The position numbers were made by a program, and so were the translations under genes. Below, one piece after another: positions 2,033 to 62,196 of a DNA stretch of 64,000 bases (positions are counted from its first letter, which is position 1; the number at the start of each line of letters is the position of its first letter). Under the pieces are notes generated by a model. It did no database searches. It was given only the letters and a program-made list of their open reading frames with translations, and had not been told where the DNA came from. The stretch is from a virus (lineage: Duplodnaviria; Heunggongvirae; Uroviricota; Caudoviricetes): the IMG/VR virus record IMGVR_UViG_3300045988_161728; one strand, given 5' to 3'.

Positions 2033-3855
2033 GCCCTTACGATGTAATTAAATGCGATATTTCGTGGACGGGTTTCACTCCCGCCAGTATTACCAATACT
2101 CCCTCGAGAATGAAGTGTCGGTGATGGAATCAAATTCCCTCCTGTATTTGAGGCATCAAGCCCCCGTCCTTGTGTGTATGTTTTTTTGAAAATTGTCGCC
2201 AGCTCCCATTCATCTTTTGTGTCGTAACCATCATTGGCTACAACAATATGTCGGTGCTTTTCCAGCATTCCTGTCTGAATGCTCAATAAAGCACGTCCCG
2301 CATCCACCCCGCGCCCATCATCCCAGCCGCGAATAAATTCTCCCCGTAAATCCGGTAATTTATTGGTGGGATAAGCCTTTGCCAGATTTGGGTACTTTTC
2401 AGAAGAAAATGCTGCACCATTGCATTTCAGCCACCCCGTTGGAGGTGTGGCTGAGGGCCATGGAACAGGTACACCAACGGGCAGCGCCGAGCCTTCTCCT
2501 AAACCAAGGTAATCAAGAACGCTCTGAATACTGGTCTTACCAAGAATGGCGCGTCCAACACTTGTCAATGCAGTTAACGCGGCACGATCAACACCTGTGA
2601 AATAAGGGAGTTTATCTGCTGCTGTAGCTAGTGCCGCTAGAGCAGTGAGCGTAGCGTCTGCCGCTTGCTTTCCATTAGCCAAATCATATGCAGCCTTGAC
2701 AGCTTTCGGTGTGGCGGCCAGCACTTCGGACGTGCTATTGGTAGCACTGCTGAGTTGGACTATCCCTTTTTGAGCCGTGGTTGCATCCTGGGCTGTATAC
2801 TTCCCGTTAGCCAGGTCATATGCAGCCTTGACAGCTTTCGGTGTGGCGGCCAGCACTTCGGACGTGCTGTTAGTGGCACTACTGAGCTGAGTGATGCCTT
2901 TCGCTGTCAATGAAGCTGTTGGCACACCAGTGATCTGATTCCAGGGATGTGTATGACTGGATGGTGCCTTTCCGGCTGCTAGATCGTATGCAGCTTTAAC
3001 CGCTTTTGGAGTTGCAGCTAATGTTTCAGAAGTGCTGTTAGTGTCGCTACTGAGCTGAACTATCCCTTTTTGTGTCGTGGTTGCATCCTGGGCTGTATAC
3101 TTCCCGTTAGCCAGGTCATATGCAGCCTTGACAGCTTTCGGTGTGGCGGCCAGCACTTCAGACGTGCTGTTAGTAGCACTGCTGAGCTGAACTAATCCCT
3201 TTTGCGTTGTGCTTGCATCCTGCGCCGTATACTTGCTTTTCGCCAGATCGTAGGCTTTTTTAACTGCCAGCGAACTTGCAGCGACATCACTTCTGGTACT
3301 GGTTACAGAGTCGGAAATTTCAATGCCTATCGTGAGATCGATGCGGTCGGATACATCTATCATTTCCTGAGTAATAGCAGATACGCCAGCAGGGATATTC
3401 ACCGTACAAACAAGCAGTTCCCCATCTCCTAACTGATATGAATCGGTATAGGTTCTGGCAACAAATTCAGCCGCATGAATATGTGACGCGGTATTAACCT
3501 GATAAGAATCTTCTCCAAGGAGGTATCTTCCCTTCAGCACAATTGCATATTTCTTACCTGCGCTAAGTGCAAGAGAAATATCCTTACGCTGCTGAATAGT
3601 TACCTGGTAGAATTCACCAATATTCACTGACGCCGCGCCAGCGGTTTTATCACCATCCACTGAGGTGATTAACAGGTTCATTCCACCGCCAGGCTTAGGC
3701 AAGAAACCAGCATAAAATCCCGGGTCAACAATTCCCCTGAATTTTCGGTTTAGAGCGGCTGACAGATATGGTTCGTGGTATTGCACATCAGCCACCAGAG
3801 CCAACGACTCGGGTGATGGGTAAGTAACCGATGTAACAACTGTAACGTCATTCAT
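2026..3855 (-). CDS. S: Tail fibre protein S (constant part fused to Sv cassette A)
   Basis: Probable start ATG at 3855 (MNDVTVV..., AAGGAT RBS) rather than the ORF-track start at 3942; internal fibre repeats (AATPKAVKAAYDLA..TAQDATTTQKGIVQLSS) recur 4-5 times; C-terminal 170 aa match the other Sv cassettes. Confidence 0.8.
   Translation of the reverse strand: MNDVTVVTSVTYPSPESLALVADVQYHEPYLSAALNRKFRGIVDPGFYAGFLPKPGGGMNLLITSVDGDKTAGAASVNIGEFYQVTIQQRKDISLALSAGKKYAIVLKGRYLLGEDSYQVNTASHIHAAEFVARTYTDSYQLGDGELLVCTVNIPAGVSAITQEMIDVSDRIDLTIGIEISDSVTSTRSDVAASSLAVKKAYDLAKSKYTAQDASTTQKGLVQLSSATNSTSEVLAATPKAVKAAYDLANGKYTAQDATTTQKGIVQLSSDTNSTSETLAATPKAVKAAYDLAAGKAPSSHTHPWNQITGVPTASLTAKGITQLSSATNSTSEVLAATPKAVKAAYDLANGKYTAQDATTAQKGIVQLSSATNSTSEVLAATPKAVKAAYDLANGKQAADATLTALAALATAADKLPYFTGVDRAALTALTSVGRAILGKTSIQSVLDYLGLGEGSALPVGVPVPWPSATPPTGWLKCNGAAFSSEKYPNLAKAYPTNKLPDLRGEFIRGWDDGRGVDAGRALLSIQTGMLEKHRHIVVANDGYDTKDEWELATIFKKTYTQGRGLDASNTGGNLIPSPTLHSRGSIGNTGGSETRPRNIAFNYIVRAA
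2494..2519 (-). other. Candidate 26-bp Cin/Min-type crossover site at the Sc/Sv junction
   Basis: TTCTCCTAAACC-AA-GGTAATCAAGAA, an imperfect dyad with a 2-bp core, placed exactly where the constant sequence (..SVLDYLG) meets the conserved cassette head (LGEGS..); resembles the gix/hix/cix family as remembered. Confidence 0.45.
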
Positions 3856-28139: not shown

Positions 28140-28240
28140 AGACGTGGCGCGGCCTGCAACGATCAGGGATCTATATGGATCTAATTGGGATCTGTATGGA
28201 CCTGATTATTGGATCTACCCAGTGGATAATGTGGATAAGT
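28140..28240. promoter_or_regulatory. oriR core: GATC cluster and tandem DnaA boxes
   Basis: Five GATC in 28150..28215; AGTGGATAA-TGTGGATAA at 28221..28238 (DnaA box TTATCCACA on the other strand). Confidence 0.7.
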
Positions 28241-30555: not shown

Positions 30556-30840
30556 CTAACTTACCTGAACCAGGCCGTCTCCGGACGCTACGGTAGATCC
30601 GCATGAAACAGGGTCACCAACGCATACGATCCCTTTACCATTGACGGTAAACCATGCCCTGGTTGATATAGCTTGCCCACCGTGCGTACTGTTTCCATCG
30701 GTATGCTGTGCATATTGCTTACCATCAACTAACACTTCGACTCCGTTGACTTTAAGTAGTGGTTCACTCTCTACAGGAGGCCTGGATGGGAATCCTCCGT
30801 GCCCCGAACAAATGCTGTCTTTTGTTGCAATACTTGCCAC
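30556..30840 (-). CDS. PAAR-repeat-like spike-tip protein
   Basis: 94 aa with spaced Cys/His (CSGHGG, HTDG, THGG, VCVGDPVSCGS) and VNG/V.V.G beta-strand pattern characteristic of PAAR domains. Confidence 0.55.
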   Translation of the reverse strand: MASIATKDSICSGHGGFPSRPPVESEPLLKVNGVEVLVDGKQYAQHTDGNSTHGGQAISTRAWFTVNGKGIVCVGDPVSCGSTVASGDGLVQVS

Positions 30841-30920: not shown

Positions 30921-30937
30921 ATTGCTCTAATAAATAT
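30921..30937 (+). promoter_or_regulatory. C1-operator-like site
   Basis: ATTGCTCTAATAAATAT upstream of the uhr/hrdC-like genes. Confidence 0.55.
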
Positions 30938-31008
30938 TGTTTTTTATGTCGTGTTTTCGGTACCATTCAGCCATCGCCCTTCAATGGGTATTTGTTTGGA
31001 GTCGTCAG

Positions 31009-31293
31009 ATGCAGATGGAGCTAATAAGCCGCAAAGAGTTCGATAGCCGTGTAACCAGCGGTGAACTCGACAACTTGCAGGCTATCAAGGTGAAAGAAGG
31101 CTTTTGCCTCATTGGGAATCAGAGCGGAACAAATCGCGTTTTTATGCTTCGCCGTACGGATTTGAAGCCATTTGTCTGGAAGAACGAAATTGGTCCCAGC
31201 TCATACGCTCAAACTAGGGGGTGCCTCAACCTGGCCTTTTTCTACAAAAACGAGCTTTCTGTGGTTGATATTCAAGGGTTACAACATGTTTAA
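31009..31293 (+). CDS. Hypothetical protein upstream of hrdC
   Basis: Start at 31009 with GGAG RBS; ORF track 30937..31293. Confidence 0.35.
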
Positions 31294-32191
31294 GCACTGG
31301 AAAAACATTACTATTTATAAACTTTCTCGTGAAGCGGATCTGACCGACTTAGAAGATAAAAAGAAAATGATCCTTTTCACGCCATGCGGTAGTCAGGATA
31401 TGGCCAAGTTCGGTTTTGTATCTCCATTTGGTGATAATTCCGAAGTTATCGCTATGCATGGAAATGGTTTTATCCTTGTTGAAGCAAAGCGCGAAACAAA
31501 AATCCTTCCCCCGCCGGTTATCCAGCGAGCTATTCAAGAAAAAATTGAAAAACTCGAGCAAGAACAAGCGCGTAAACTGAAGAAAACAGAGAAGGACTCC
31601 CTGAAAGACGAAGTTCTGCATTCTCTTCTGCCACGGGCTTTTTCAAAGTTTTCTGTTATCCAGGCGATCTACGACGGTTCAACTAAACGTATCTATATCA
31701 ATGCCAGCGCGCGGCAGGCAGAGGATATGCTCGCGCTTATGCGTAAATCTCTGGGTTCTCTTCCTGTTGTTCCCCTAAGTGTTGAAAATCCCATTGAATT
31801 AACGCTGACCGACTGGGTACGTGATGGTAGTGCTCCACAGGGATTTCAAATGGGGGATGCGGCAGAACTTAAGGCAGTGCTTGAGGATGGCGGTATTGCC
31901 CGAGTGAAAAAGCAGGATTTGGGAAGCGATGAAATTTCCACACACCTGGAAGCTGGCAAGCTCGTTACTAAGTTGGCACTCGACTGGCAGAACCGCATTA
32001 AATTTACACTGGACCATAACTTCAGCCTTACCAGCGTCAAATTTGCGGATGAATTGCTTGAGCAGAACTCTGATATTGATAGTGAAGATGTTGCGCAGCG
32101 ACTGGACGCAGATTTCTTCCTGTTGACCAGTGAAATTTCGTGCCTGGTTGATGCTCTGGTAAATGCCCTTGGTGGAGAGGCTAAGCAGTGA
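31286..32191 (+). CDS. hrdC: RdgC-family recombination-associated protein
   Basis: Starts [13 protein letters not shown], which aligns with the RdgC N-terminus (MLWFKNLMVYRL); about 302 aa as in RdgC; the ORF track's upstream start at 31172 is likely read-through. Confidence 0.75.
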
Positions 32192-34206
32192 AAGAGCTGT
32201 GCTATGGATCTGTTTGCAGTGGAATTGAAGCCGCGAGTATTGCCTGGGAACCGTTGGGTATGCGTCCGGCGTGGTTTGCTGAAATCGAGCCTTTTCCATC
32301 TGCCGTTCTTGCGCACCGCTGGCCCCATGTCGCCAACCTTGGCGACATGACAAAACTTGCCAAAAAAGTCCTGGCTGGGGAAATCGAATCCCCTGATGTG
32401 CTCGTCGGGGGTACGCCTTGTCAGGCATTCAGTATCGCGGGCTTACGTGGTGGGCTTGATGATGAACGCGGCGCGCTAACTTTGAAGTATGTGGAGCTTG
32501 CAAATGCAATTGACGACAAACGGTCTGAGTCCTTCCTCAAACCGACAGTTATCGTCTGGGAAAATGTCCCAGGAGTCCTGTCATCGGCAGATAACGCCTT
32601 CGGATGTTTCCTTGCCGGATTGGCTGGAGAAGATGCGCCATTTGAACCAGGTGATCGACCTGAATCAGGAAAAAGTAACGCGTTCTGGCGGTGGGATGGC
32701 AAAACCGGTTGCCATGCTCCAAAGTGGCCGCAGTGTGGTTGTATTTATGGACCGCAGCGAAAGGTGGCCTGGAGAATCCTTGATGCCCAATACTTCGGAG
32801 TGGCACAACGACGCCGACGCGTGTTTGTTGTCGCAAGTGCTCGAACAGACCTCGATCCCGCAACGGTACTTTTTGAGTTCGAAGGCGTGCGCCGGAATAT
32901 TGCGCCGAGCAGAGGCGAGGGGAAGGAAACTACCAGATATACTTCAAACATCGCTATCAGATCTTGCGATGATACAAACATAGTTGCCATGGCACATGGG
33001 CAAGGAGGGGCTGAGATAAAAACCGATAATTCGGCACCAACTTTGACATGTAACCATGAAGCACCAATTGTATTGCTCGTCGACGGTAGAATGCGCCGTC
33101 TTATCCCTGTCGAATGTGAAAGGCTGCAAGGTTTTCCTGATGGACATACATTGATCCCTACGGAAAAGCGTAAAAAAGTTTCTTCAGATGAACTGGCATA
33201 CCTTCGCAAAAACTATCCTGATTTGAGCGAAGAAGAGGCCGCGATGCTTGCAGCTGACGGACCGCGTTACAAAGCGATCGGCAATAGTATGGCGATACCA
33301 GTAATGCGCTGGATTGGCGATCGGATTGCCAAGGCTGCATGTCGGCAGAAGGAAGGGAGTGAAACAAAAGAGCGAAAAGTTAAACCAGCGGCAGAATTCG
33401 AACGGTCCATATTCAAATGGGCTGGTGGAAAATTTGGTGTTCTGGAACAAATCTTTCGCTATTTGCCAGAAGGGAAGCGCCTGATTGAGCCTTTCGTTGG
33501 TGGCGGAGCTGTCTTCATGAATGCCGGATACCAGGAAAATCTGCTAAATGATGTGAATGCTGACCTGATTAACTTTTACAAGACTCTGCAACGCGAGGCG
33601 CATTCACTTATCACTCTGGCACATCGTTTCTTCCAGGACTACAACACGCAGGAAGGATACCTGGCAGTACGGAATGCGTTTAACAAACAAGTCTATGATG
33701 ATTTACATCGCGCAGCGGCGTTTTTGTTCCTGAACCGACATTGTTTTAACGGATTGACGCGTTACAACCAAGCCGGTGAGTTCAATGTCGGTTATGGGAA
33801 GTATAAAACTCCGTATTTCCCATTGCAGGAGATGGAAGCCTTCCTTGGTGCGGAAGGGCGTTCTGAGTTTGTATGTGGTGATTTTGCTGCGGTGATTGAA
33901 GCTGCCGGAGAAGGAGATGTCATCTTTTGCGATCCGCCGTATGAACCGCTCCCAAATACAGAGGGATTCACGAACTATTCCGGTCATGACTTTAAGTTTG
34001 AAGAGCAAAAACGCCTGGCGTCTCTGTTGACGGATGCTCATCGCCGAGGTGCAAAGGTTCTCATTACTAACAGTGGCGCGCCAAACATCAGAGAACTTTA
34101 TCAGGACAGTGGCTTCAGAGTGGAACCTCTTTTTGCCAGACGTTCTGTGTCTTGTAAGGGGGACACTCGAGGTGTTGCTCATGACGTTATAGCAATATTG
34201 CTCTAA
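32188..34206 (+). CDS. dmt: Bifunctional DNA methyltransferase (N-terminal C5-cytosine, C-terminal Dam-like N6-adenine)
   Basis: C5-MTase motifs [11 protein letters not shown] and ENVPG in the first half; Dam-type FKWAGGK and DPPY in the second half; GTG start with GGAGAGG RBS. Confidence 0.85.
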
Positions 34207-34213
34207 TAAATTT
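34197..34213 (+). promoter_or_regulatory. C1-operator-like site overlapping the dmt stop
   Basis: ATTGCTCTAATAAATTT, perfect match to the remembered consensus. Confidence 0.6.
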
Positions 34214-34390
34214 ATTAGTGTAATATCGCCTCAATGAATCGTGATTTATAGAGCGATTTAGCTGTTAGCCGCGACAGGCGCGGCGGCAAGTATGGCGGGG
34301 TAGTGACTCCTTCCCCCTCATGACGCCGAGTTGCCAGGTTGACCATACGCCTAAGTGGCAACACCGAAGTGCGTTACGAGCTTCCAGTTT

Positions 34391-34417
34391 GCCCATCTTC
34401 GGGTGGGCGTTTTTTTC
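34391..34417 (+). terminator. Intrinsic terminator
   Basis: GCCCATC-TTCG-GGTGGGC stem-loop followed by GTTTTTTT. Confidence 0.6.
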
Positions 34418-34881
34418 AGGGTTTTCGTCATGGTTAGCGACTTTGCGGCGGTTTAGAAACTGACCATTAAAGTAAATGCAAACGATGATCTGATGATGGT
34501 AGCGGCCTAAGAAGCCAGACGCCACGGGGTATGAGTCGTCCCCCGTCAAAAAATCGACCGCAGAGTGTCCCCGTCTGTGTATTAGGGAACGGGGAGGCAC
34601 AACAGGTAAGGGCGCTGGTGTGATTAACCAGATGAACGAGAAGGGGCCATCTGTTGGTCAGCGTCCTTTCCTGTTGCGTCTTCTTTTCAGCGTAACAGCG
34701 GTGCTTAACAGCACTTTGGGTACAGTTCCACGAATTTACGGGTATATCCCGTCATGCTGAAAGCGCTAATCACGCTGGAAGCCAGGGTTATGCATCCCCT
34801 GTTACCGAATTGCAGCCAGGGCGCGGTGCGCCGAAAAGCATACGGAGGTGGAAGCCCTCGCCGGAGACGTACCCGGCAAGT

Positions 34882-34957
34882 GATGGTGTAGCTCAGCGGT
34901 TAGAGCGGTTGACTGTTAATCAACGGGTCGATGGTTCAAATCCATCCACCATCGCCA
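34882..34957 (+). tRNA. tRNA-Asn (anticodon GUU)
   Basis: Manual cloverleaf: 7-bp acceptor GATGGTG/CACCATC, D-arm GCTC..GAGC, anticodon loop CTGTTAA, T-arm GATGG-TTCAAAT-CCATC, encoded CCA. Confidence 0.8.
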
Positions 34958-34959
34958 AT

Positions 34960-35035
34960 GCCGGTTTAGCTCAGTTGGTAGAGCGCCTGCCTTGTAAGCA
35001 GGATGTCAGCGGTTCGAGTCCGTTAATCGGCACCA
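34960..35035 (+). tRNA. tRNA-Thr (anticodon UGU)
   Basis: Acceptor GCCGGTT/AATCGGC, anticodon loop CTTGTAA, T-loop TTCGAGT, encoded CCA; starts 2 nt after tRNA-Asn. Confidence 0.8.
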
Positions 35036-35830
35036 GCACAACAGGTAAGGGTATTTTGCGACGTCGGAGATCGCCGAGCTTGGCAGAGGGTTCGAATCCC
35101 TACGAAGTACCCTTACCGTTGTGATGAATGCGCAGGCTGATGCGCGAAAGACATTGCAGCTATTGCGGAAAAGAGCTGTTCGGCGGGGCAATTAAACGCC
35201 CGTGAGAGTCTGAAATAACCGCAAGCCGGAGATCAGCACCGGTCATCACAACACAACAGGTAAGGGCATTCTCCCTTATGGGGCTTGGCTTAAATGCATC
35301 GAGTGCTCTTACCGTTGTGATGAAGTGCAGCTCTTTGAAGCAACCAGAAGATAAGCATCTGGCTTCACAACATAAACCGCAGGAACGACCAATAAACGGT
35401 AGTCCGTATGGAGAACACCCCGTTGAGGAAGAGGCCTGGCCGGAACCGTAACCGGCACTACAACGTTGAGAACACTGGCGTAACGGGGTCATATCCCAAT
35501 CTACGAATAAATGTTGCGTTGCAGCGTGACAACCAGTGTTCTCAACATTGTGGTGAATGCACAGGCTGATGTGCCGCAACTACAGTAGTGCGCGCTTTGC
35601 GGGGCTTGCTACAACCCTGTGTCGGAGTTCAGCACCGACCATCACAGTTTGATTCTCTGGCATGAGCATAACGCTGAAATAAGTCCAGCCTGGTGCGGCC
35701 CGATCACCCGCCGTTAGCTCCACGAAACGGAGCACGTAACAGGTAAGAGCATTCTCCTGTAACGGGTTCATATCCCAATCTACAGGTCCACCAAGAATGC
35801 TCTTTCCGTTGCGGTGAATGCGGCTAAGCG
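35036..35830 (+). repeat. Array of about four long-hairpin tRNA-like repeat units
   Basis: Units at about 35038..35120, 35256..35320, 35455..35560 and 35737..35812 share AACAGGTAAGRGYATT ... CCGTTGYGRTGAAKGC arms; unit 1 encloses a T-arm-like GGGTTCGAATCCC, unit 3 encloses GGGTTCATATCCC and ends CCACCA. Confidence 0.5.
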
Positions 35831-35963
35831 CACGCGGGGAAATGGTTATATCAGTCCATTCATTTCTCCTTGTTTCCCCGTCCACGGTGGATAACCAGCC
35901 AAAGGACACCGGGAGGCACCCGGCACCGCAGCTTTTTTATTCGTTAAATAATGGAGTGAGAGG

Positions 35964-36200
35964 ATGCAGAACAATCCGAACAAATGTCGAACGCTATGGG
36001 TGCGGTTATATATTTATGCCGTCCTCTGTTTGATTGTGTCACTGGTTCTGTATGTTTGGCTTTTGCCAAATATGATCTCATCTAACAGCACAATACTTGT
36101 ATTGTTGGGAGTCCTTCTCGCGCTCATTTACCCGGCTTTCGCAGTAGTCTTTTTTCGTGAAAAAACCAGGAAATTAATTAATGAAAAAAACGTTGATTAG
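35964..36200 (+). CDS. Small inner-membrane protein (two TM helices)
   Basis: 78 aa hydrophobic ORF, stop overlaps plp start. Confidence 0.4.
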   Translation: MQNNPNKCRTLWVRLYIYAVLCLIVSLVLYVWLLPNMISSNSTILVLLGVLLALIYPAFAVVFFREKTRKLINEKNVD

Positions 36201-37008
36201 TGCAGCGATTATTTTGGGTTCTTTATGTCTGACCGGATGCGATCGGGTAGAGCCAGGTAACGTAGGGATCAAAGTAAATAAGCTGGGGGATGATAAAGGT
36301 ATCGGTGAAGTAGTTGGCGTTGGTCGCTACTGGACAGGCTTGAATACTGAAGTTTATATCTTCCCGACCTTTAAGCAAATGAAGACATACGATGAGCCGT
36401 TCAGCTTCCAGATGAGCGACGGAACAACCATTGGTTACCACATCGGCGTAGCCTACAAGGTTGATCCAGCAAAAGTCACAACGGTATTTCAGACCTATCG
36501 CAAAGGTGTAGATGATATTACTGATACCGATCTACGCCAGAAGGTTGCAGATGCTCTGAACCGGTTAGCCAGCAAAATGACCACCGACAAATTTATCGAC
36601 GGTGGCAAATCTGAATTGCTTGATGCAGCCCTTAAAGACATTCAGGAAGAAATGACGCCAATCGGCATTCAGGTGATGAGCCTCTCTTATGTAGGTAAGC
36701 CAGAATACCCGCCAACAGTTATTGACAGTATTAACGCCAAAGTCACGGCAAACCAAAAAACCCTGCAACGCGAGCAAGAGGTCAAACAACGTGAAGCAGA
36801 GGCCAACATGCTGCGCGCGGAAGCTGCCGGACAGGCTGATGCTATTCGCACAAAAGCCCAGGCCGAAGCTGATGCCATTCGTTTACGTGGTGAAGCTCTG
36901 CGCCAGAACCCCGGTGTTATGGAGTTGGAAGCGATCAACAAATGGAACGGTACATTACCGCAGTATATGACCAGTAATACCGCTGTTCCGTTTGTTCCGG
37001 TGAAATAA
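36181..37008 (+). CDS. plp: SPFH/band-7-like lipoprotein Plp
   Basis: Lipobox LCLTGC after signal peptide; C-terminal Ala/Glu/Gln-rich coiled segment typical of SPFH proteins. Confidence 0.65.
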   Translation: MKKTLISAAIILGSLCLTGCDRVEPGNVGIKVNKLGDDKGIGEVVGVGRYWTGLNTEVYIFPTFKQMKTYDEPFSFQMSDGTTIGYHIGVAYKVDPAKVTTVFQTYRKGVDDITDTDLRQKVADALNRLASKMTTDKFIDGGKSELLDAALKDIQEEMTPIGIQVMSLSYVGKPEYPPTVIDSINAKVTANQKTLQREQEVKQREAEANMLRAEAAGQADAIRTKAQAEADAIRLRGEALRQNPGVMELEAINKWNGTLPQYMTSNTAVPFVPVK

Positions 37009-37035
37009 AAGCGTAAGCAAAATTGGCAGTAATCC

Positions 37036-37111: not shown

Positions 37112-37397
37112 TATTTGGTTGTAACACGGCGTCTGGCACATGCGTCGTTAGCGGTCTGGTGACGTTAAAAGGGGGGAACCTTGCCCCTAGCTCAGGCAAC
37201 GAACCAGGTAGCCGGAATGTGCAAGCCACCGTTTGTTGTTTCTCGGGTAAAGGGATTCACCATCCTGGCGATTCGGTGTGACAGCCGGGAAGAGTCCGGC
37301 GCATTAATCCTGATTTTCTGGTGATGACTCATATCGTTAGGAGTGATTTGAGTATGCCGATTATATCTGACATTCAGCACGCCTGGGTGGAGTGCTA

Positions 37398-38762
37398 ATG
37401 TCTGCATCCCCTCTTGAATCCATGCCAAATTCCCTTAGTGCAGAACAAGCTGTACTTGGTGGCTTAATGCTTGATAACTGCCGCTGGGATGAAGTTGCAG
37501 ATCGTATAGTTGCTGATGATTTTTATACCAGTGCTCATCGTGAAATTTTCAGTGAGATGGAGAGGTTATTAAGTCATGGCAAACCGATTGATTTGATAAC
37601 ACTTGCTGAAGCACTTGAACAGAACGGTAAATTAGAACGCGCCGGTGGTTTTGCGTACCTTGCGGAGATGTCAAAGAACACGCCCAGCGCGGCAAATATT
37701 TGTGCTTATGCGGATATCGTTCGTGAACGCGCGGTTGTTCGTGAAATGATTTCCGTCGCAAATGAAATAGCCGAAGCTGGATATGCGCAGGATGGCAGGG
37801 GCAGCAATGAATTGCTGGATATGGCCGAGCGCCGCGTTTTTGAAATAGCTGAAAAACGACAAAAGAGCGGTAGTGGTCCAAAAGATATCGCCAGCATTCT
37901 CGATGCAACGGTATCTCGCATAGAAGAGTTGTTTCAGCGACCACATGATGGTGTAACGGGGCTTGATACGGGATTTACCGATCTCAATAAGAAGACGGCA
38001 GGGCTTCAGCCGTCCGATCTCATCATTGTCGCCGCCCGCCCATCTATGGGGAAGACCACGTTTGCGATGAATCTCGTCGAAAATGCCGCAGTTCGTAACG
38101 ATAAGCCCGTATTGGTTTTTAGCCTTGAGATGCCGAGCCACCAGCTGATGATGCGCTCACTGGCTTCTCTTGCACGCGTTGATCAGACTCGTATTCGGAC
38201 AGGGCAACTTAACGACGAGGATTGGGCGCGGGTTTCTGGCGCAATGGGTATTCTGTTGGACAAGCAGAATATTTTTATTGATGACTCAAGCGCCCTGACG
38301 CCGACAGAGCTACGTTCCCGCGCTCGTCGTGTTTATAAAGAAAATGGTGGTTTGAGCATGATTATGATCGACTACCTGCAACTTATGCGCGTCCCCGAGC
38401 TGCAAGATAACCGAACGCTGGAAATTGCCGAGATTTCTCGCTCACTGAAGGCGTTGGCGAAGGAATTACAAGTACCGGTGGTGGCATTGTCACAACTTAA
38501 TCGATCGCTTGAACAGCGTGCGGACAAACGACCGGTAAATTCAGATTTACGTGAATCAGGAGCAATTGAGCAGGACGCAGACCTGATTATGTTTCTGTAT
38601 CGCGACGAAGTTTATCACCCGGATAGCGAAATGAAGGGCATTGCCGAGGTAATTATCGGAAAGCAACGAAATGGCCCAATTGGCACGGTGAGATTGGCTT
38701 TTAACGGCCAATACTCACGGTTTGATAACTATGCTGGTGCTGACTGGCAAGAGGATTATTAA
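37398..38762 (+). CDS. ban: Replicative DNA helicase, DnaB analogue Ban
   Basis: About 454 aa; DnaB N-terminal domain plus Walker A (ARPSMGKTT) and RecA-like C-terminal domain; ATG 37398 with GGAG RBS (ORF track 37392 GTG). Confidence 0.9.
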   Translation: MSASPLESMPNSLSAEQAVLGGLMLDNCRWDEVADRIVADDFYTSAHREIFSEMERLLSHGKPIDLITLAEALEQNGKLERAGGFAYLAEMSKNTPSAANICAYADIVRERAVVREMISVANEIAEAGYAQDGRGSNELLDMAERRVFEIAEKRQKSGSGPKDIASILDATVSRIEELFQRPHDGVTGLDTGFTDLNKKTAGLQPSDLIIVAARPSMGKTTFAMNLVENAAVRNDKPVLVFSLEMPSHQLMMRSLASLARVDQTRIRTGQLNDEDWARVSGAMGILLDKQNIFIDDSSALTPTELRSRARRVYKENGGLSMIMIDYLQLMRVPELQDNRTLEIAEISRSLKALAKELQVPVVALSQLNRSLEQRADKRPVNSDLRESGAIEQDADLIMFLYRDEVYHPDSEMKGIAEVIIGKQRNGPIGTVRLAFNGQYSRFDNYAGADWQEDY

Positions 38763-51606: not shown

Positions 51607-51838
51607 ACAGAACGAAAAGGCTATCGCTCAAATTGCTGATTATATCCCGCGTGCGTGCCGGGGTATGCAGTTGCAGGAAGCCAAAGCGCGCCTGGAGAAA
51701 AAAATTGCGCTCTATATTGATGACGGCTGTGATGCTGCTGTTCTTAACGCAGCGTTCGCGCCAGCTCTTAACAGTCATACGCGGGAGTCTTTTTTTTCGC
51801 GCATCGCAGCGCAGATCCGTAAAGGAGGCAACCAGTGA
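51599..51838 (+). CDS. Small hypothetical protein
   Basis: 79 aa; overlapping stop/start with neighbours. Confidence 0.3.
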   Translation: MFKQNEKAIAQIADYIPRACRGMQLQEAKARLEKKIALYIDDGCDAAVLNAAFAPALNSHTRESFFSRIAAQIRKGGNQ

Positions 51839-52560
51839 GCGAAATTAACTATAAAGAACTGCGCGAGGCGGCGAAACAGGCAACGCAAGATGAATGGGTA
51901 GCATATATTTTGCCGGGTCATAACGGCATTTATCCTGCGCGCACGTCTGAGGGTAGGCATTGCGGATACTTTATTGACTGGCCTAGCGTCTGTCAGGGGC
52001 GGGAGAGCATCAACATGAGCATCAGAACCTACGCAGTGAATTGCAATGACGCATGGCTAAACACCGAAGGTGATGACATCTCCGGCTCATACGTTAAGTA
52101 CAAAGACCATCAGGAAGTGGTTGCCGCTCTTGAGGCCAAGTGCGCGGCGCTGGCGGCGGAGAATGAGCTGGCTCGTAAGGCAGTTCAGGCATTCTGCGAT
52201 GTTGTTGGCGACAACACCGAGGTTATCGCTGAGGAGGTTGGGCGAGATGGCGTTCTGGTTATTTTGGGGGCCATGAAGGCAACAGGAAATATTTCAGCCA
52301 CCGATGCTTTTCTGGCTGAAATTCGTGCGGAAGCACGCAACGAGGGGATTAACTATACCGCCAGCCGTCTTGCTGCTGCGTTCAATCACGGATTTATCAA
52401 TAAATCTTTGCGTGAAGTTTTCGACGTTACACGCATGATTTTGTCAGCGAAAGAAGAGTTGGCTAATGAACCGCATCCGATTGATGGCCTGTCCGGTGAA
52501 TATGCGGAGAAATCCCTTGAAGAATGGGCGGAACAGATTCGCAAAGGAGGCAAGCAGTGA
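51835..52560 (+). CDS. Ead/Ea22-like protein
   Basis: N-terminus MSEINYKELREAAKQAT, paralogous to 52858..53415. Confidence 0.45.
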   Translation: MSEINYKELREAAKQATQDEWVAYILPGHNGIYPARTSEGRHCGYFIDWPSVCQGRESINMSIRTYAVNCNDAWLNTEGDDISGSYVKYKDHQEVVAALEAKCAALAAENELARKAVQAFCDVVGDNTEVIAEEVGRDGVLVILGAMKATGNISATDAFLAEIRAEARNEGINYTASRLAAAFNHGFINKSLREVFDVTRMILSAKEELANEPHPIDGLSGEYAEKSLEEWAEQIRKGGKQ

Positions 52561-52856
52561 GTGTATATCTTATTGATAAACGTCGACGTGGGCAACAAAT
52601 ACCACCTGTAGGAATTCCGAATCACACATGGTTTTGCGTACTTGATATCGATGGTATGGATGCGTTGGTTGACACTCGTCATTACTGCGATACCGCAACA
52701 GCTACTCCGGCGAAAGCAAAGAAAATGGCTGCTCTGATAGAAAACTGGACTCCACCTGATGGTTGGTGCAATGGGAATGATCGAGATTGGCATGAAAAAA
52801 TGAAGGGCTATATCTGCGATTTCTTACGTAAATGCAACGGATTCAGGGTGATGTGA
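52554..52856 (+). CDS. Small hypothetical protein (GTG start)
   Basis: GGAGG RBS before GTG; ORF track gives an upstream Met start at 52524. Confidence 0.3.
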   Translation, partial: AVSVYLIDKRRRGQQIPPVGIPNHTWFCVLDIDGMDALVDTRHYCDTATATPAKAKKMAALIENWTPPDGWCNGNDRDWHEKMKGYICDFLRKCNGFRVM

Positions 52857-52857
52857 C

Positions 52858-53415
52858 ATGAACAAGATTGACTATCAGGCACTGCGTGAGGCGGCAGAGA
52901 AGGCAACGTGGGGAGACTGGGACTCATATAAACCACACCGTGGCGCACGTGGTTATGAGGTCCGACTAAGTAGTCAGGCCATTGCGCAACACGTTCTGAA
53001 AAACAACGCTGAATTTATTGCTGCCTTTAATCCAAAGATTGCTTTGGCACTACTGGATGAACGGGAAAGGAACCAGCAATACATCAAATCCCGCGACCAG
53101 GAGAACGAGGATATTGCACTAACGGTAGGGAAGTTGCGCGTTGAGCTGGAAGCAGCAAAATCAAAACTCAACGAGCAGCGTGAGTATTACGAAGGTGTTA
53201 TCTCTGATGGGAGTAAGCGCATAGCAGAGTTAGAAAGTGGTTCTCAGGCACAAAAGTTAGTTGAAGCAATCATTGTTGCGATAGAAAACGAACAGGAACG
53301 TCTTTTTGATGAAGATTACCTAATGGATTCGAAAGAATGCATTGACGTAATTCGTGAAGAAGTAAAGCGATGGGATGATTCCCGCGCCGCTGGCATTGGC
53401 ATCAAAGGAGAGTGA
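52858..53415 (+). CDS. Ead/Ea22-like protein
   Basis: N-terminus MNKIDYQALREAAEKAT. Confidence 0.45.
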   Translation: MNKIDYQALREAAEKATWGDWDSYKPHRGARGYEVRLSSQAIAQHVLKNNAEFIAAFNPKIALALLDERERNQQYIKSRDQENEDIALTVGKLRVELEAAKSKLNEQREYYEGVISDGSKRIAELESGSQAQKLVEAIIVAIENEQERLFDEDYLMDSKECIDVIREEVKRWDDSRAAGIGIKGE

Positions 53416-53416
53416 T

Positions 53417-53680
53417 ATGGCAACTTTGACAAAAAAAGAACAAGCATGGTTGAGCGAATTACAGGACGTTCTTGATCGCTGCCCATCACCGAAAAAAATT
53501 GGTTTTTACACCATTGGCGATAAAAGCATTTACCTGTATGACCTGCGCCGCATGGATGAAATCATGGAGGCTCTTGATAATCGTTCGTCAATGGATTGGT
53601 GTGTTGCTGTTCATGATATGAATGCCGGATTTGATGAAAAGATTTTATTCCCCTCATCAGTTGAAAGTACAGCAGGATAA
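53417..53680 (+). CDS. Small hypothetical protein
   Basis: Start MATLTKKEQ with GGAGAG RBS; ORF track 53375. Confidence 0.35.
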   Translation: MATLTKKEQAWLSELQDVLDRCPSPKKIGFYTIGDKSIYLYDLRRMDEIMEALDNRSSMDWCVAVHDMNAGFDEKILFPSSVESTAG

Positions 53681-53690
53681 GGACTAACAC

Positions 53691-54578
53691 ATGACCACTA
53701 TTACCAAAGAGCGACTGCTGACAATCAGGCAGTGGCGCGAAACATACGGACCTGGTAGCAACGTTGTACTGCCAGCAGAAGAAGCGGAAGAACTGGCACG
53801 AATTGCTCTGGCATCGCTGGAGCAGAATGCACTATCTGGCAACTCTCGGCTTATTCCTGGTGAAGTGTTGTCCGCAATCCGGGAGGTTGCCAAGATTCGT
53901 GCCGATTTCGATGATTTTGACGGTGACAGGCGAGGTATCGGTGATTGTCTGGATGAGGCCGAGCAAGAGCTTATCGTTACCATTAACAAATATGCCAGTC
54001 AGTTGGCAGCAGAACCGATAGCGACTAATGACGTTCGAGAGCAAACAGCCGTTCCGCCAATACAGGCTGATGTCGCGCAAGCAATTGAAAATCTCAAGCA
54101 GAAGTTAGTGGAATGCAATCGCTATAACTACTGCGCAGATGCAGTGAAGAACGTAGAGGATGCCTGCCGTGCTGTTAGCTATAGCCAAGCCGACAATCAG
54201 CCAGCATCTGGCAACCAGGCTGCCGAATCCAATCGCGGTAATGAGTGGACTGGCAATCCTGATATTGATAACGCCATCATCATGCTCGACCGCATAGATA
54301 CGCTGGAAAATTGCGATGATGACCGTATTGAGGCTGTTAAGGCTGTTTTGCGTAGACTGGCTGGCAACTCTCCGGTAACTCCGGATAGTTGGATAAGCTG
54401 TAGTGAGCGAATGCCCGCTCAAGATGATTGGATTTTAATTTATTCAAAGCACGGCGAGTATATGGCAGGCCAGGTGCAAGGGGAATACGTGGAGTTGAGC
54501 GACGGCACTTTATCGTGGTTAGGGAACGCCTTGTTCTGGATGCCGCTACCAGAACCGCCGCAGGAGGTGAATCAATGA
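53691..54578 (+). CDS. Ead/Ea22-like protein
   Basis: N-terminus MTTITKERLLTIRQWRETYG; 295 aa. Confidence 0.45.
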   Translation: MTTITKERLLTIRQWRETYGPGSNVVLPAEEAEELARIALASLEQNALSGNSRLIPGEVLSAIREVAKIRADFDDFDGDRRGIGDCLDEAEQELIVTINKYASQLAAEPIATNDVREQTAVPPIQADVAQAIENLKQKLVECNRYNYCADAVKNVEDACRAVSYSQADNQPASGNQAAESNRGNEWTGNPDIDNAIIMLDRIDTLENCDDDRIEAVKAVLRRLAGNSPVTPDSWISCSERMPAQDDWILIYSKHGEYMAGQVQGEYVELSDGTLSWLGNALFWMPLPEPPQEVNQ

Positions 54579-54660
54579 GCTGGCCTGAAGCATTCACCAC
54601 GGTAGGAATTGTGATGGCGGCAGCACTGGGTTTGTATTCAATTTGTCGCTGGTGGTAACG
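54577..54660 (+). CDS. Small hydrophobic peptide (27 aa)
   Basis: MSWPEAFTTVGIVMAAALGLYSICRWW; ATGA overlap with the preceding gene. Confidence 0.3.
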
Positions 54661-54894
54661 ATGGGAAAAATAACTTTTGTAGTCGAATTTGAGGATGGCA
54701 AAGAGCCACCTGTTAGCGCCAATCTTGATGTTGCTGGTGGCAGGCTTGTTTCGGTTCTATTTGGTGACTACCGAGATGACTTCTTCCAACCAGAAGAAGT
54801 TGATGTAGTGCGAGAGGCATTAAACGAGTTAAGTGTTGATAACGATGATGCTCATGCGGAAATCATCCAAAAAATGGAACTGCTAACTCACTAA
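54661..54894 (+). CDS. Small acidic protein
   Basis: 77 aa from ATG 54661. Confidence 0.3.
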   Translation: MGKITFVVEFEDGKEPPVSANLDVAGGRLVSVLFGDYRDDFFQPEEVDVVREALNELSVDNDDAHAEIIQKMELLTH

Positions 54895-54949
54895 ATTATC
54901 AATTATGGTGCTATCACCTACGACACCGAGAGAAAATTTATAATGTCAA

Positions 54950-55072
54950 AAGTAAATGTTTTGATTTTTTCAGCAATTGTTGGCTTTGGTTTTACTGCCG
55001 GAGTGCAGATTTATATTACGTGGGAAAAAATCATCAACTACGCATGGAGTTGTTTTATTAAGTGAGGTAAGT
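54950..55072 (+). CDS. Small hydrophobic peptide (40 aa)
   Basis: MSKVNVLIFSAIVGFGFTAGVQIYITWEKIINYAWSCFIK. Confidence 0.3.
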
Positions 55073-55366
55073 ATGTGGAGAGGTAATAGTCATGGCAAAA
55101 GCCAGATGATACTTACCGAATATCAGTTTGACCATAAAACCAATAAATCACGTTCAGTATATTTGCTTCGGCACAATAGCCGCGTAAGGAATACCGTGCT
55201 GGAGCAAAATCTGACTGTTGAAATAGATAATTACGGGGGCTTCAAGCCAACAATTTCGCTTGATGATTTTCCTCGTGGTTTAAGCGAAAGAGAAGCAATG
55301 CTGAAATTAGCAGAATGGCTACAAAGATTAAGCATTGCTATTGAAGATAACTGGTCTGAACCTTAA
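55073..55366 (+). CDS. Hypothetical protein
   Basis: Start MWRGNSHGK with GAGG RBS; ORF track 54977. Confidence 0.35.
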   Translation: MWRGNSHGKSQMILTEYQFDHKTNKSRSVYLLRHNSRVRNTVLEQNLTVEIDNYGGFKPTISLDDFPRGLSEREAMLKLAEWLQRLSIAIEDNWSEP

Positions 55367-55372
55367 ATTTAT

Positions 55373-55747
55373 ATGATGACACTAAAACATTTTCTTGACC
55401 GCCCATTATGGGCGGCAGCCGCAGGCTATGACTTTAATTATATGGATTGCATGTCTTATACCGCCAATGCATACGACTATTCCTTCAGTCTGCTGCTTAA
55501 TTCTTTAAGAATATTGCCGCAAACAGAAGTTGGAGAGCTTCATTTATGGCTATTGGGCTTTATCGCGGCTGGAGTTGGTATTGCTGTATGGCCTTTTATT
55601 TTCTGGCTGGTGGCTGTTGTAGTGTGGTTTAAGTGCAAGACGTACCGGAGAAAGTATTTCTTAGGTGATGGAATGACTGATATTGCCAAAATGAACATTG
55701 AAAAATGGACTAAGGAATGTGAAAAGAAATGGCGCAAAAAGAAATGA
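55373..55747 (+). CDS. Membrane protein
   Basis: 124 aa with central hydrophobic hairpin and Lys-rich tail. Confidence 0.4.
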   Translation: MMTLKHFLDRPLWAAAAGYDFNYMDCMSYTANAYDYSFSLLLNSLRILPQTEVGELHLWLLGFIAAGVGIAVWPFIFWLVAVVVWFKCKTYRRKYFLGDGMTDIAKMNIEKWTKECEKKWRKKK

Positions 55748-56661
55748 CCAGAATCACTGAAGAGCGTATATCAGAGATTATTTCCCGTATCGAAATGTAT
55801 GGTCACGGTGCTGGATATACGGCAGATGAAGTATTGGCACTTGCCCAAATGGCTTTGGCGGCTTGCAAAGATGATAAAAAAATGAAGTTTATCGACTTGT
55901 TAGTGAAGGAACTGCCTAAGTGCGGCGGGTGGCCTGATGGAATGAGTTATTGTTACCTACCCAGTGTCAATTTAATGGCACCATGCGCGACTTTTGCTTT
56001 TGGCTCAGACCACAAAAAAGACACTTTCTTTGGGCGCAATTTTTGTTGTGAGATTGAGCTTCCAATTGGTGACCTTGATAGCGATGAATACCAGTCAGTT
56101 GTCACTCGCGAACAATACGAATCAGCTCTCATAGCGTCGCAGAAAGTCGAGTTCAATGGTGATGAACTTGAAAGTAAGACTTACAGGTTGGATTTTGGGC
56201 AATGGCTGGAACAGCAACGCGGGAAAATCGATGTGGACTGTGGTTGTGTGTCCACTGAAACATTCATGCACTGGCTGCGGGTAGCTTACGAGGCTGGCAA
56301 CTATCCGGATATTCCGGATAGTTCGGTGCCAGCACCAGGAAAGGGCGTCACCGGTGAACGTATCCGAATTAAGCCGCATGTTTATCGCGAACTGGTTAAC
56401 CGTCTCCACGATACAGCGATCAAGTGTGCTGGCACCCAGCAATTACGAGAAAGAATTAGCCGTGTTTTGGGCGACGTTATTACACCAGATCATCATAAAC
56501 AAGCCGAGAAAAGTGGCCTGGAAAGGTGTCACCTTGAGGCGGCATTAAACATTAAGCCGGGGCATACGCTTGGCATTATTGATGCACTATTGGTTCATAA
56601 GATGGCCAGGGCTTTATTGCCGCTGGTGGATGCTGGCGATACAAGCGAGGGTGAAGTATGA
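55744..56661 (+). CDS. Ead/Ea22-like N-terminal domain protein
   Basis: MTRITEERISEIISRIEMYG resembles the N-terminus of 53691..54578. Confidence 0.4.
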   Translation: MTRITEERISEIISRIEMYGHGAGYTADEVLALAQMALAACKDDKKMKFIDLLVKELPKCGGWPDGMSYCYLPSVNLMAPCATFAFGSDHKKDTFFGRNFCCEIELPIGDLDSDEYQSVVTREQYESALIASQKVEFNGDELESKTYRLDFGQWLEQQRGKIDVDCGCVSTETFMHWLRVAYEAGNYPDIPDSSVPAPGKGVTGERIRIKPHVYRELVNRLHDTAIKCAGTQQLRERISRVLGDVITPDHHKQAEKSGLERCHLEAALNIKPGHTLGIIDALLVHKMARALLPLVDAGDTSEGEV

Positions 56662-61002: not shown

Positions 61003-62196
61003 GTGACCTGGGACGATCACAAGAAGAATTTTGCTCGCCTGGCGCGAGATGGTGGTTACACCATCGCACAATATGCCGCCGAGTTTAATCTCAACCCAAA
61101 CACCGCACGTCGTTATCTCCGTGCATTCAAAGAAGACACCGGAACAGCGGACAGCCGTAAGCCAAATAAGCCTGTCAGAAAACCACTAAAAAGCATGATC
61201 ATTGATCACGCTAATGATCAACGTGCAGGTGATCACATTGTGGCTGAAATGGCTGAAAAACAAAGAGTTAATGCTGTTGTCAGTGCCGCAGTCGAGAACG
61301 CGAAGCGCCAGAATAAGCGCATAAATGATCGTTCTGATGATCATGACGTGATCACCCGCGCCCACCGGACCTTACGTGATCGCCTGGAACGCGACACCCT
61401 GGATGATGATGGTGAACGCTTTGAATTCGAAGCTGGCGATTACCTGATAGATAACGTTGAAGCGCGGAAGGCCGCGCGCGCTATGTTGCGTCGGTCCGGG
61501 GCCGATGTTCTGGAAACCACTCTTCTGGAAAAGTCTCTTTCTCATCTCCTTATGCTGGAGAACGCCAGGGATACGTGTATTCGCCTGGTGCAGGAAATGC
61601 GCGATCAGCAAAAAGACGATGATGAAGGTACTCCGCCTGAATACCGTATCGCGAGCATGCTAAACAGCTGTTCCGCGCAGATAAGCAGCCTGATCAACAC
61701 CATTTACAGCATCCGGAATAACTATCGAAAAGAAAGCCGGGAGGCGGAAAAGCACGCTTTGTCTATGGGGCAAGCTGGCATTGTTAAGCTGGCATACGAA
61801 CGAAAGCGTGAAAATAACTGGTCAGTGCTGGAAGCGGCTGAATTCATCGAGGCGCATGGAGGAAAAGTGCCGCCCCTGATGCTGGAGCAAATCAAAGCCG
61901 ATCTGCGTGCTCCTAAGACCAATACCGATGATGAGGAAAACCAAACAGCATCTGGCGCTCCATCACTTGAAGATCTGGATAAAATCGCGCGAGAACGGGC
62001 CGCCAGCCGCCGCGCTGATGCGGCATTGTGGATTGAGCATCGTAGAGAAGAAATTGCCGATATCGTCGATACAGGTGGTTATGGTGATGTCGATGCGGAA
62101 GGCATATCAAACGAAGCATGGCTTGAACAGGATCTGGACGAAGACGAGGAGGAAGACGAAGAAGTTACCCGCAAACTGTACGGGGATGATGATTAA
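61003..62196 (+). CDS. pacA: Terminase small subunit PacA
   Basis: 397 aa; contains the pac hexamer clusters; acidic C-terminus; GTG start with AAGGAAG RBS. Confidence 0.85.
61195..61356. other. pac: pac packaging site
   Basis: Four TGATCA hexamers (61196..61236) and three TGATC(A/G) hexamers (61326..61355) flanking an about 90-bp core. Confidence 0.75.

Follow-up and report, generated by a model that had tools for sequence, protein, structure and literature searches.

We analysed a 64,000-nucleotide stretch of Caudoviricetes DNA (IMG/VR record IMGVR_UViG_3300045988_161728; the whole stretch is called the window below) and characterized its open reading frame (ORF) at positions 32188–34206, which encodes a fused C5-cytosine and Dam-type N6-adenine DNA methyltransferase. 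This gene, dmt, is the third of an operon laid out as follows.

31009–31293, plus strand: uhr, first gene of the operon, 94 amino acids (aa), co-linear with P1 uhr and P7 upf64.0; no Pfam or PADLOC match
31286–32191, plus strand: hrdC, RdgC-family, recombination-associated (PF04381, 327.7 bits), so annotated in P1 and P7
32188–34206, plus strand: dmt ('dam' in P7), GTG start, TAA stop, 672 aa
32188–33342, plus strand: C5-cytosine methyltransferase half of dmt, residues 1 to ~385, with motifs I, IV (PCQ), VI (ENV), VIII (QRRRR), IX and X (GNS)
32911–33093, plus strand: variable block between C5 motifs VIII and IX, residues ~241–300, the presumed target-recognition domain, a P7-type cassette
33400–34203, plus strand: Dam-family N6-adenine methyltransferase half, residues 405–672, with KWAGGK, FVGGG and DPPY

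A fused methyltransferase of the P1 family

Pfam and NCBIfam searches agree with the two-domain reading. The 672-aa product matches the C5 methylase family PF00145 in two N-terminal stretches (122.9 bits against a cut-off of 22) and the D12 N6-adenine methylase family PF02086 over residues 411–644 (196 bits, cut-off 22), and it exceeds the cut-offs of both the Dam subfamily model TIGR00571 (253.9 bits, cut-off 114.85) and the dcm superfamily model TIGR00675 (112.9 bits, cut-off 100.65). The motifs PCQ (residues 77–79, nucleotides 32416–32424), ENV (125–127), WAGGK (411–415) and DPPY (582–585) lie on this one polypeptide, as an earlier note on this DNA had described. That note had also called the first half Dcm-like, which holds for a generic C5 methyltransferase and fails for E. 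coli Dcm, whose family model the product does not match (PRK10458/NF007772, 19.9 bits, cut-off 710). The host-Dam equivalog model NF008152 likewise stayed below its cut-off (248.6 bits vs 441).

By alignment, the window is part of a P1-family (Punavirus) phage-plasmid, and the ORF is dmt. Positions 31000–35500, which cover uhr, hrdC, dmt/dam and the tRNA genes, match P1, P7, JL22, RCS47 and other Punavirus genomes at 97–98.5%, while the remaining window aligns with P1 from ~37 kb (window position 3109) to ~93.5 kb. The order Op68-uhr-hrdC-dmt-Op72ab-tRNA-Asn-tRNA-Thr, followed at a distance by ban, is conserved as in P1 and P7. Outside dmt the window combines P1-like, P7-like and other Punavirus segments in a mosaic. 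Both dmt and the operator Op72a,b have been described before, and neither is new.

P7 Dam (AAQ07538.1; AF503408, 68963–70981) is also 672 aa long, has the same type of variable block and is 97% identical to the window protein, from which it differs by ~3% scattered substitutions. Its neighbours match as well: Op(dam), upf64.0 and hrdC precede it, Op(ban) a/b and tRNAs follow it, and the operators do not differ. P1 Dmt (AAQ14041.1; AF234172, 66412–68676) shares the operon and the order of the two domains, is 754 aa long and is 91% identical to the window protein. Outside the variable block this identity is 90–100% in nearly all 30-residue bins (83% in the short last bin), whereas in place of the window's ~60 residues P1 has an unrelated block of ~143 residues (23–26% identity). 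The GenBank record AF234172 calls P1 Dmt a bifunctional DNA methyltransferase that methylates N6 of adenine in GATC and 'perhaps' C5 of cytosine, and AF503408 words its entry for P7 Dam, also bifunctional, in much the same way.

E. coli assemblies commonly encode, on contigs of ~90 kb, proteins that show no difference from the window protein in the first 400 aa and 98–100% identity to it in the Dam half. The 5' part of dmt is present in 497 PLSDB plasmids, nearly all of which are non-mobilizable and come from Escherichia or Salmonella.

The operator at the stop codon and the operator of the operon

Two operator regions, each with its annotated promoters, flank the operon.

30921–30937, plus strand: C1 operator Op68 (Odmt), 16/17 to the operator 17-mer, controls uhr-hrdC-dmt by annotation
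30937–30966, plus strand: promoter Pdmt (−35 at 30937–30942, −10 at 30961–30966), assigned by homology, identical to the AF234172 'sigma 70 promoter Pdmt'
34181–34226, plus strand: promoters P2ban (−35 at 34181–34186, −10 at 34207–34212) and P1ban (−35 at 34198–34203, −10 at 34221–34226), from AF234172 coordinates by alignment
34197–34224: divalent C1 operator Op72a,b (Oban a,b), site a at 34197–34213 on the plus strand and site b at 34208–34224 on the minus strand, annotated in P1 and P7

As search query we used the 17-mer ATTGCTCTAATAAATTT, which we take to be the C1-operator consensus. With up to three mismatches it has 11 matches in the window against 0.25 expected, and none of 100 shuffles reached 11; we therefore regard these matches as genuine members of the regulon. 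One of them, at 34197–34213 on the plus strand, agrees at 17/17 positions and spans the TAA stop codon of dmt (34204–34206). A second copy on the opposite strand (34208–34224, 15/17) overlaps it, and the two form a palindrome.

Op72a,b and the next 60 nucleotides are base-identical in the window, P1 and P7. Both AF234172 and AF503408 annotate Op72a,b as the operator of the downstream ban operon, embedded in the promoters P1ban and P2ban. Judged by its position 3' of dmt and by these alignments, Op72a,b cannot repress initiation of dmt and governs the ban operon. Op68 lies 1.25 kb upstream of dmt and has the same sequence as the operators that the P1 and P7 records label 'Odmt; former Op68' and 'Op(dam)'. 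C1 binding and repression at Op68 and Op72 are taken from the GenBank annotation. The c1 gene appears to lie just outside the window, as indicated by the JL22 alignment and by the closest complete relative, plasmid pIso00270_01 (NZ_CP095126.1; IncY, 99.9 kb). Within the operon, the start codon of dmt overlaps the stop codon of hrdC as GTGA.

The Dam half and the GATC clusters

The Dam half has the binding motif for S-adenosylmethionine (AdoMet), FxGxG, as F436-V-G-G-G440, and the catalytic motif as D582-P583-P584-Y585. It aligns over its full length with the structures of E. coli Dam (2g1p, 4rtj; E = 1e-58), with which it shares KWAGGK, FxGxG, NGLxRYN and DPPY; the window enzyme differs in being fused to a second methylase, phage-encoded and repressor-controlled. 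In E. coli Dam the residues that read GATC are presumably K9, Y119, L122, R124 and P134. K9, L122 and R124, together with DPPY 181–184, align with the identical K410, L523, R525 and D582–Y585. The GATC specificity of Dmt itself is taken from annotation and literature.

The window has two GATC clusters, of which pac is the known substrate of the Dam activity.

28161–28215: oriR plasmid origin, 5 GATC (incC region), 98–99.5% identical to P1/P7 oriR
61197–61353: pac packaging site in pacA, 4 + 3 GATC, aligned with the P1 stretch that has the annotated pac cleavage and IHF sites

The GATC sites of pac (4 + 3) fall within 154 bp (61197–61350), and P7 annotates those of oriR (28161–28212) as 'Dam methylation site 1-5'. 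Over the window as a whole GATC is as frequent as base composition predicts (248 observed, 248.5 expected). For the dependence of pac on methylation we draw on the literature: a passage of a 2025 review (PMC12707154), citing Sternberg & Coulby 1990, states that packaging of P1 depends on methylated GATC at pac and that P1 therefore cannot replicate in Dam− hosts unless it has dmt. In a CRISPR interference screen of P1vir, dmt scored as non-essential (PMC10695390).

The cytosine half and its variable block

The catalytic residues of the cytosine half are strongly conserved. Across 45 homologues, with identities down to 54%, there is no variation at C78, Q79, E125, N126, V127, Q207, R211, G365, N366 or S367, and 44 of the 45 retain R208 and R209. 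Because the catalytic motifs are intact and the key residues invariant or nearly so, the cytosine half is most likely active.

Its fold family, and the order of motifs I, IV, VI and VIII, variable block, IX and X, are those of M.HhaI and M.HaeIII (1mht, 1dct). Sequence similarity to these enzymes is detectable only around motifs IV–VI, and Dmt has two extra insertions, one of ~40 residues that separates VI from VIII and a second that separates IX from X. A Foldseek search of the PDB with the predicted model of the protein re-derived only E. coli Dam, DpnM, M.HhaI, M.HaeIII and DNMT3. We considered a zinc cluster in the VI–VIII insertion (C140, C175, H176, C183, C185) and rejected it, C175 being present in only 8/21 sequences and C183 in only 8/45.

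The P1-type allele of JL22 aligns with all of dmt except the variable block. Among P1-family alleles identity is at least 96% on its flanks and 16–33% inside it, and the block falls into four discrete, unrelated types: that of the window and P7, that of P1 (~143 residues), and those represented by P0032 and P0033. The window's type is present over most of its length in 184 of the 497 PLSDB plasmids. A module of ~30 residues is common to the P1 and P0032 blocks, and the P1-type block may be composite. The Dam half exists in two versions, ~98% and ~70–75% identical to that of the window, which combine freely with the block types. The cassette-like exchange of the block suggests selection on target specificity, and the cytosine target of P1 Dmt probably differs from that of the window allele. 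No characterised close relative turned up from which the cytosine target could be predicted by sequence.

Compared by description only, the multispecific C5 enzymes of Bacillus phages (SPR, phi3T) are similar in being phage-borne orphans with an exchangeable recognition block. The Bacillus-phage enzymes array several target-recognition domains (PMC12707154), whereas the window allele has a single short block; a multi-module arrangement is suspected only for the longer P1-type allele.

Six distant relatives (P0046, P0100, P0103, P0105, P0108 and P0112) have the same C5 domain fused to PF05869 (phage Dam) and not to PF02086. This suggests that C5 and N6-adenine methyltransferases became fused more than once, or that one domain was exchanged for another.

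An intein at the catalytic cysteine

In one P1 isolate (OP279344.1, 2689–5727) the dmt allele is 1013 aa long and has an insertion of 341 residues exactly at the catalytic Cys78 of PCQ. The insertion matches the domains Hint_2 and LAGLIDADG_3, that is, an intein with a homing endonuclease. Inteins typically occupy the active sites of functional proteins and then splice out. In ~130 of the 497 PLSDB plasmids the 5' part of dmt is split in two; among the examples listed, the split falls at nucleotide ~232, the Cys78 codon. About a quarter of plasmid dmt alleles thus seem to have an intein at this cysteine. The window allele has none.

Search for a restriction partner

Pfam and PADLOC searches of the neighbouring ORFs found no nuclease beside dmt, which is flanked by uhr, hrdC, tRNAs, an SPFH gene and ban. 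The same searches found no restriction enzyme around dmt or in the window segments that differ from JL22; for the remaining ORFs the absence is deduced from synteny with annotated P1-family genomes. The scanned regions encode tail-fibre, Ea22-like, DUF551, DUF7739 and SPFH proteins, and no defence protein. PADLOC ranks 'orphan methyltransferase' first among its models for the Dam half (290.6 bits).

In pIso00270_01, the ~36 kb beyond the equivalent of the window hold a type III Mod and Res pair. The same ~36 kb also encode darA, a 2255-aa 'N-6 DNA methylase' (DarB-like), a site-specific integrase (Cre in P1), ref and c1. A nuclease thus probably exists elsewhere in the element sampled here, together with its own methylase. 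A P1 isolate from which res and mod are deleted retains dmt.

Proposed function and alternative explanations

We propose, with high confidence, that dmt is the bifunctional methyltransferase of a P1-family phage-plasmid, that it is controlled from Op68 and methylates pac, and that the operator at its stop codon serves the ban operon. In this model uhr, hrdC and dmt would be transcribed from Pdmt, and C1 at Op68 would keep the operon off in the lysogen. The GTGA overlap suggests that translation of dmt is coupled to that of hrdC. Dmt protein would be made after induction or infection, when its Dam half would methylate the adenine of GATC and bring the seven pac sites to full methylation, allowing the PacA/PacB terminase to cut and headful packaging to start. 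This activity would be redundant with host Dam and would matter in Dam− hosts. We infer that the cytosine half most probably methylates cytosine within a short motif that the variable block determines, the most plausible role being to shield progeny DNA from restriction in the next host. Op72a,b, with P1ban and P2ban embedded in it, would repress the next unit, from the tRNAs through ban, and not dmt.

Several observations weigh against this picture. In the literature searched we found no report of cytosine methylation by Dmt (nor anything on its allele diversity or intein), and the GenBank wording on this activity is 'perhaps'. The AlphaFold2 model of the full protein, built from a 45-sequence alignment, has a mean predicted local distance difference test score (pLDDT) of 60.8, and below 50 in the variable block; because these values are too low, the model is unusable for DNA recognition or domain packing. 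Two of the residues of E. coli Dam that presumably contact DNA are replaced in Dmt (Y119 by F520, P134 by G535). A simple sigma-70 consensus scan missed Pdmt, P1ban and P2ban and gave fewer matches than in shuffles, so the promoter coordinates rest on the P1 annotation. Finally, the internal late promoter LPdam2 predicted in P7 is identical at window positions 33176–33194, within the C5-coding part, and would add C1-independent control. Its −22 box, AAGTTTCTT, scores 8/9 and is close to the annotated late promoters, while its −10 (TGAACT) lacks the TA common to 6/6 of them. LPdam2 is thus a weak, predicted promoter, and late C1-independent expression from it is possible; if it is functional, the late transcript would be confined to the 3', Dam-encoding part of the gene.

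The earlier note had read the gene as an orphan epigenetic or anti-restriction methylase, with no endonuclease adjacent, whose expression is controlled by a repressor at the operator overlapping its stop codon. Much of its observational basis stands: the operator is real and perfect, no nuclease adjoins dmt, and PADLOC too favours an orphan enzyme. C1 bound at Op72ab could in principle stop read-through out of dmt. Repressor control is right in so far as the gene belongs, by annotation, to the C1 regulon; it acts at Op68, the operon's own annotated operator at its 5' end, and not at the stop-codon site, which lies at the 3' end of dmt and is the annotated ban operator with P1ban and P2ban embedded. 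The suggested function has to be divided in the same way, since the known role of the Dam half, in the passage of PMC12707154 noted above, is pac methylation, which leaves anti-restriction as a candidate role for the cytosine half only. As a whole, this explanation is quite improbable. We consider it still less probable, indeed hardly credible, that dmt supplies the modification activity of a restriction-modification system with its nuclease outside the window. NZ_CP095126.1 does encode a type III Res in the ~36 kb beyond the window equivalent, but this Res directly adjoins its own Mod, tens of kb from dmt, so that it does not count as the cognate nuclease of dmt that, by the earlier note, would speak against its reading. 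Moreover, dmt is co-transcribed with recombination genes and no nuclease, the P1 isolate deleted for res and mod keeps it, and the best PADLOC model is that of an orphan.

It is also unlikely, although less so, that only the Dam half is functional, the C5 half being an inactive remnant or a module for DNA binding or scaffolding. Such a loss would fit with GATC methylation being the only documented activity, with the reserve of the GenBank entry, with the dispensability of dmt in the laboratory (PMC10695390), and with the interruption of about one in four plasmid alleles at the codon of the catalytic cysteine, where one P1 isolate has its intein. Against it, none of the six catalytic C5 motifs is damaged, and their key residues vary hardly or not at all across the 45 homologues, down to 54% identity. 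An intein at this position argues the same way, inteins being typical of functional active sites from which they splice out, and a dead C5 half would hardly explain a recognition block that is exchanged between flanks at least 96% identical. Returning to the bifunctional enzyme, we tentatively extend the proposal, at a level of belief somewhat short of even: the cytosine half is active, the block is a recombining specificity cassette, the P7-type motif differs from that of P1, Dmt acts as a diversifying anti-restriction device, and the intein is a separate selfish passenger.

Neighbouring genes and other features

Downstream of Op72a,b, the unit that ends in ban contains the following genes.

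34882–34957 and 34960–35035, plus strand: tRNA-Asn and tRNA-Thr, the first genes after Op72ab (ARAGORN, Rfam), arranged as in P1 and P7
37036–37111: tRNA with anticodon CAT, between the SPFH gene and ban
37392–38762, plus strand: ban, DnaB-type helicase ORF, co-linear with JL22 ban, which names the Op72-controlled operon

A strong terminator-like hairpin at 34390–34409, followed by seven T, lies in window 34225–34420, ~180 nucleotides past Op72ab. It coincides with the end of the region annotated in P1 as 'dicF-like region', so the ban operon may have a short leader RNA. Rfam gave no gathering-score match downstream of Op72ab, in the P1 'dicF-like region', and an E-value search returned chance-level matches only.

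Positions 35931–37026 do not align with JL22. P1 and JL22 annotate plp, upl and tciA-C there, while the window encodes an SPFH/Band 7 protein (36181–37008, PF01145) preceded by a small hydrophobic ORF (35964–36200). A second segment variable relative to JL22, 50644–56294, encodes two Ead/Ea22-like proteins, a DUF551 and a DUF7739 protein and several ORFs of no family; the JL22 stretch that corresponds to it, with no alignment there, includes an extra adenine methyltransferase, adsM. Divergent from the dmt operon is a homologue of P1 UpfC (30556–30840, minus strand, 94 aa), with a PAAR match (PF05488) at 26.4 bits, under the cut-off of 27; the other divergent genes upstream of uhr have no Pfam match.

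Implications

For the annotation of this element, the value of the analysis is that the gene is the dmt of P1 and P7 and that the stop-codon operator is part of the ban operon. By annotation C1 represses the dmt operon in lysogens, so the methylome of a lysogen, which the earlier note had proposed to compare with that of a cured strain, would probably miss dmt activity. The allele series, with four block types, two versions of the Dam half and presence or absence of the intein, offers natural variants for assigning the cytosine target and its role. If the cytosine half is indeed active and the variable block a cassette, Dmt would be an anti-restriction device that diversifies at the level of the population.

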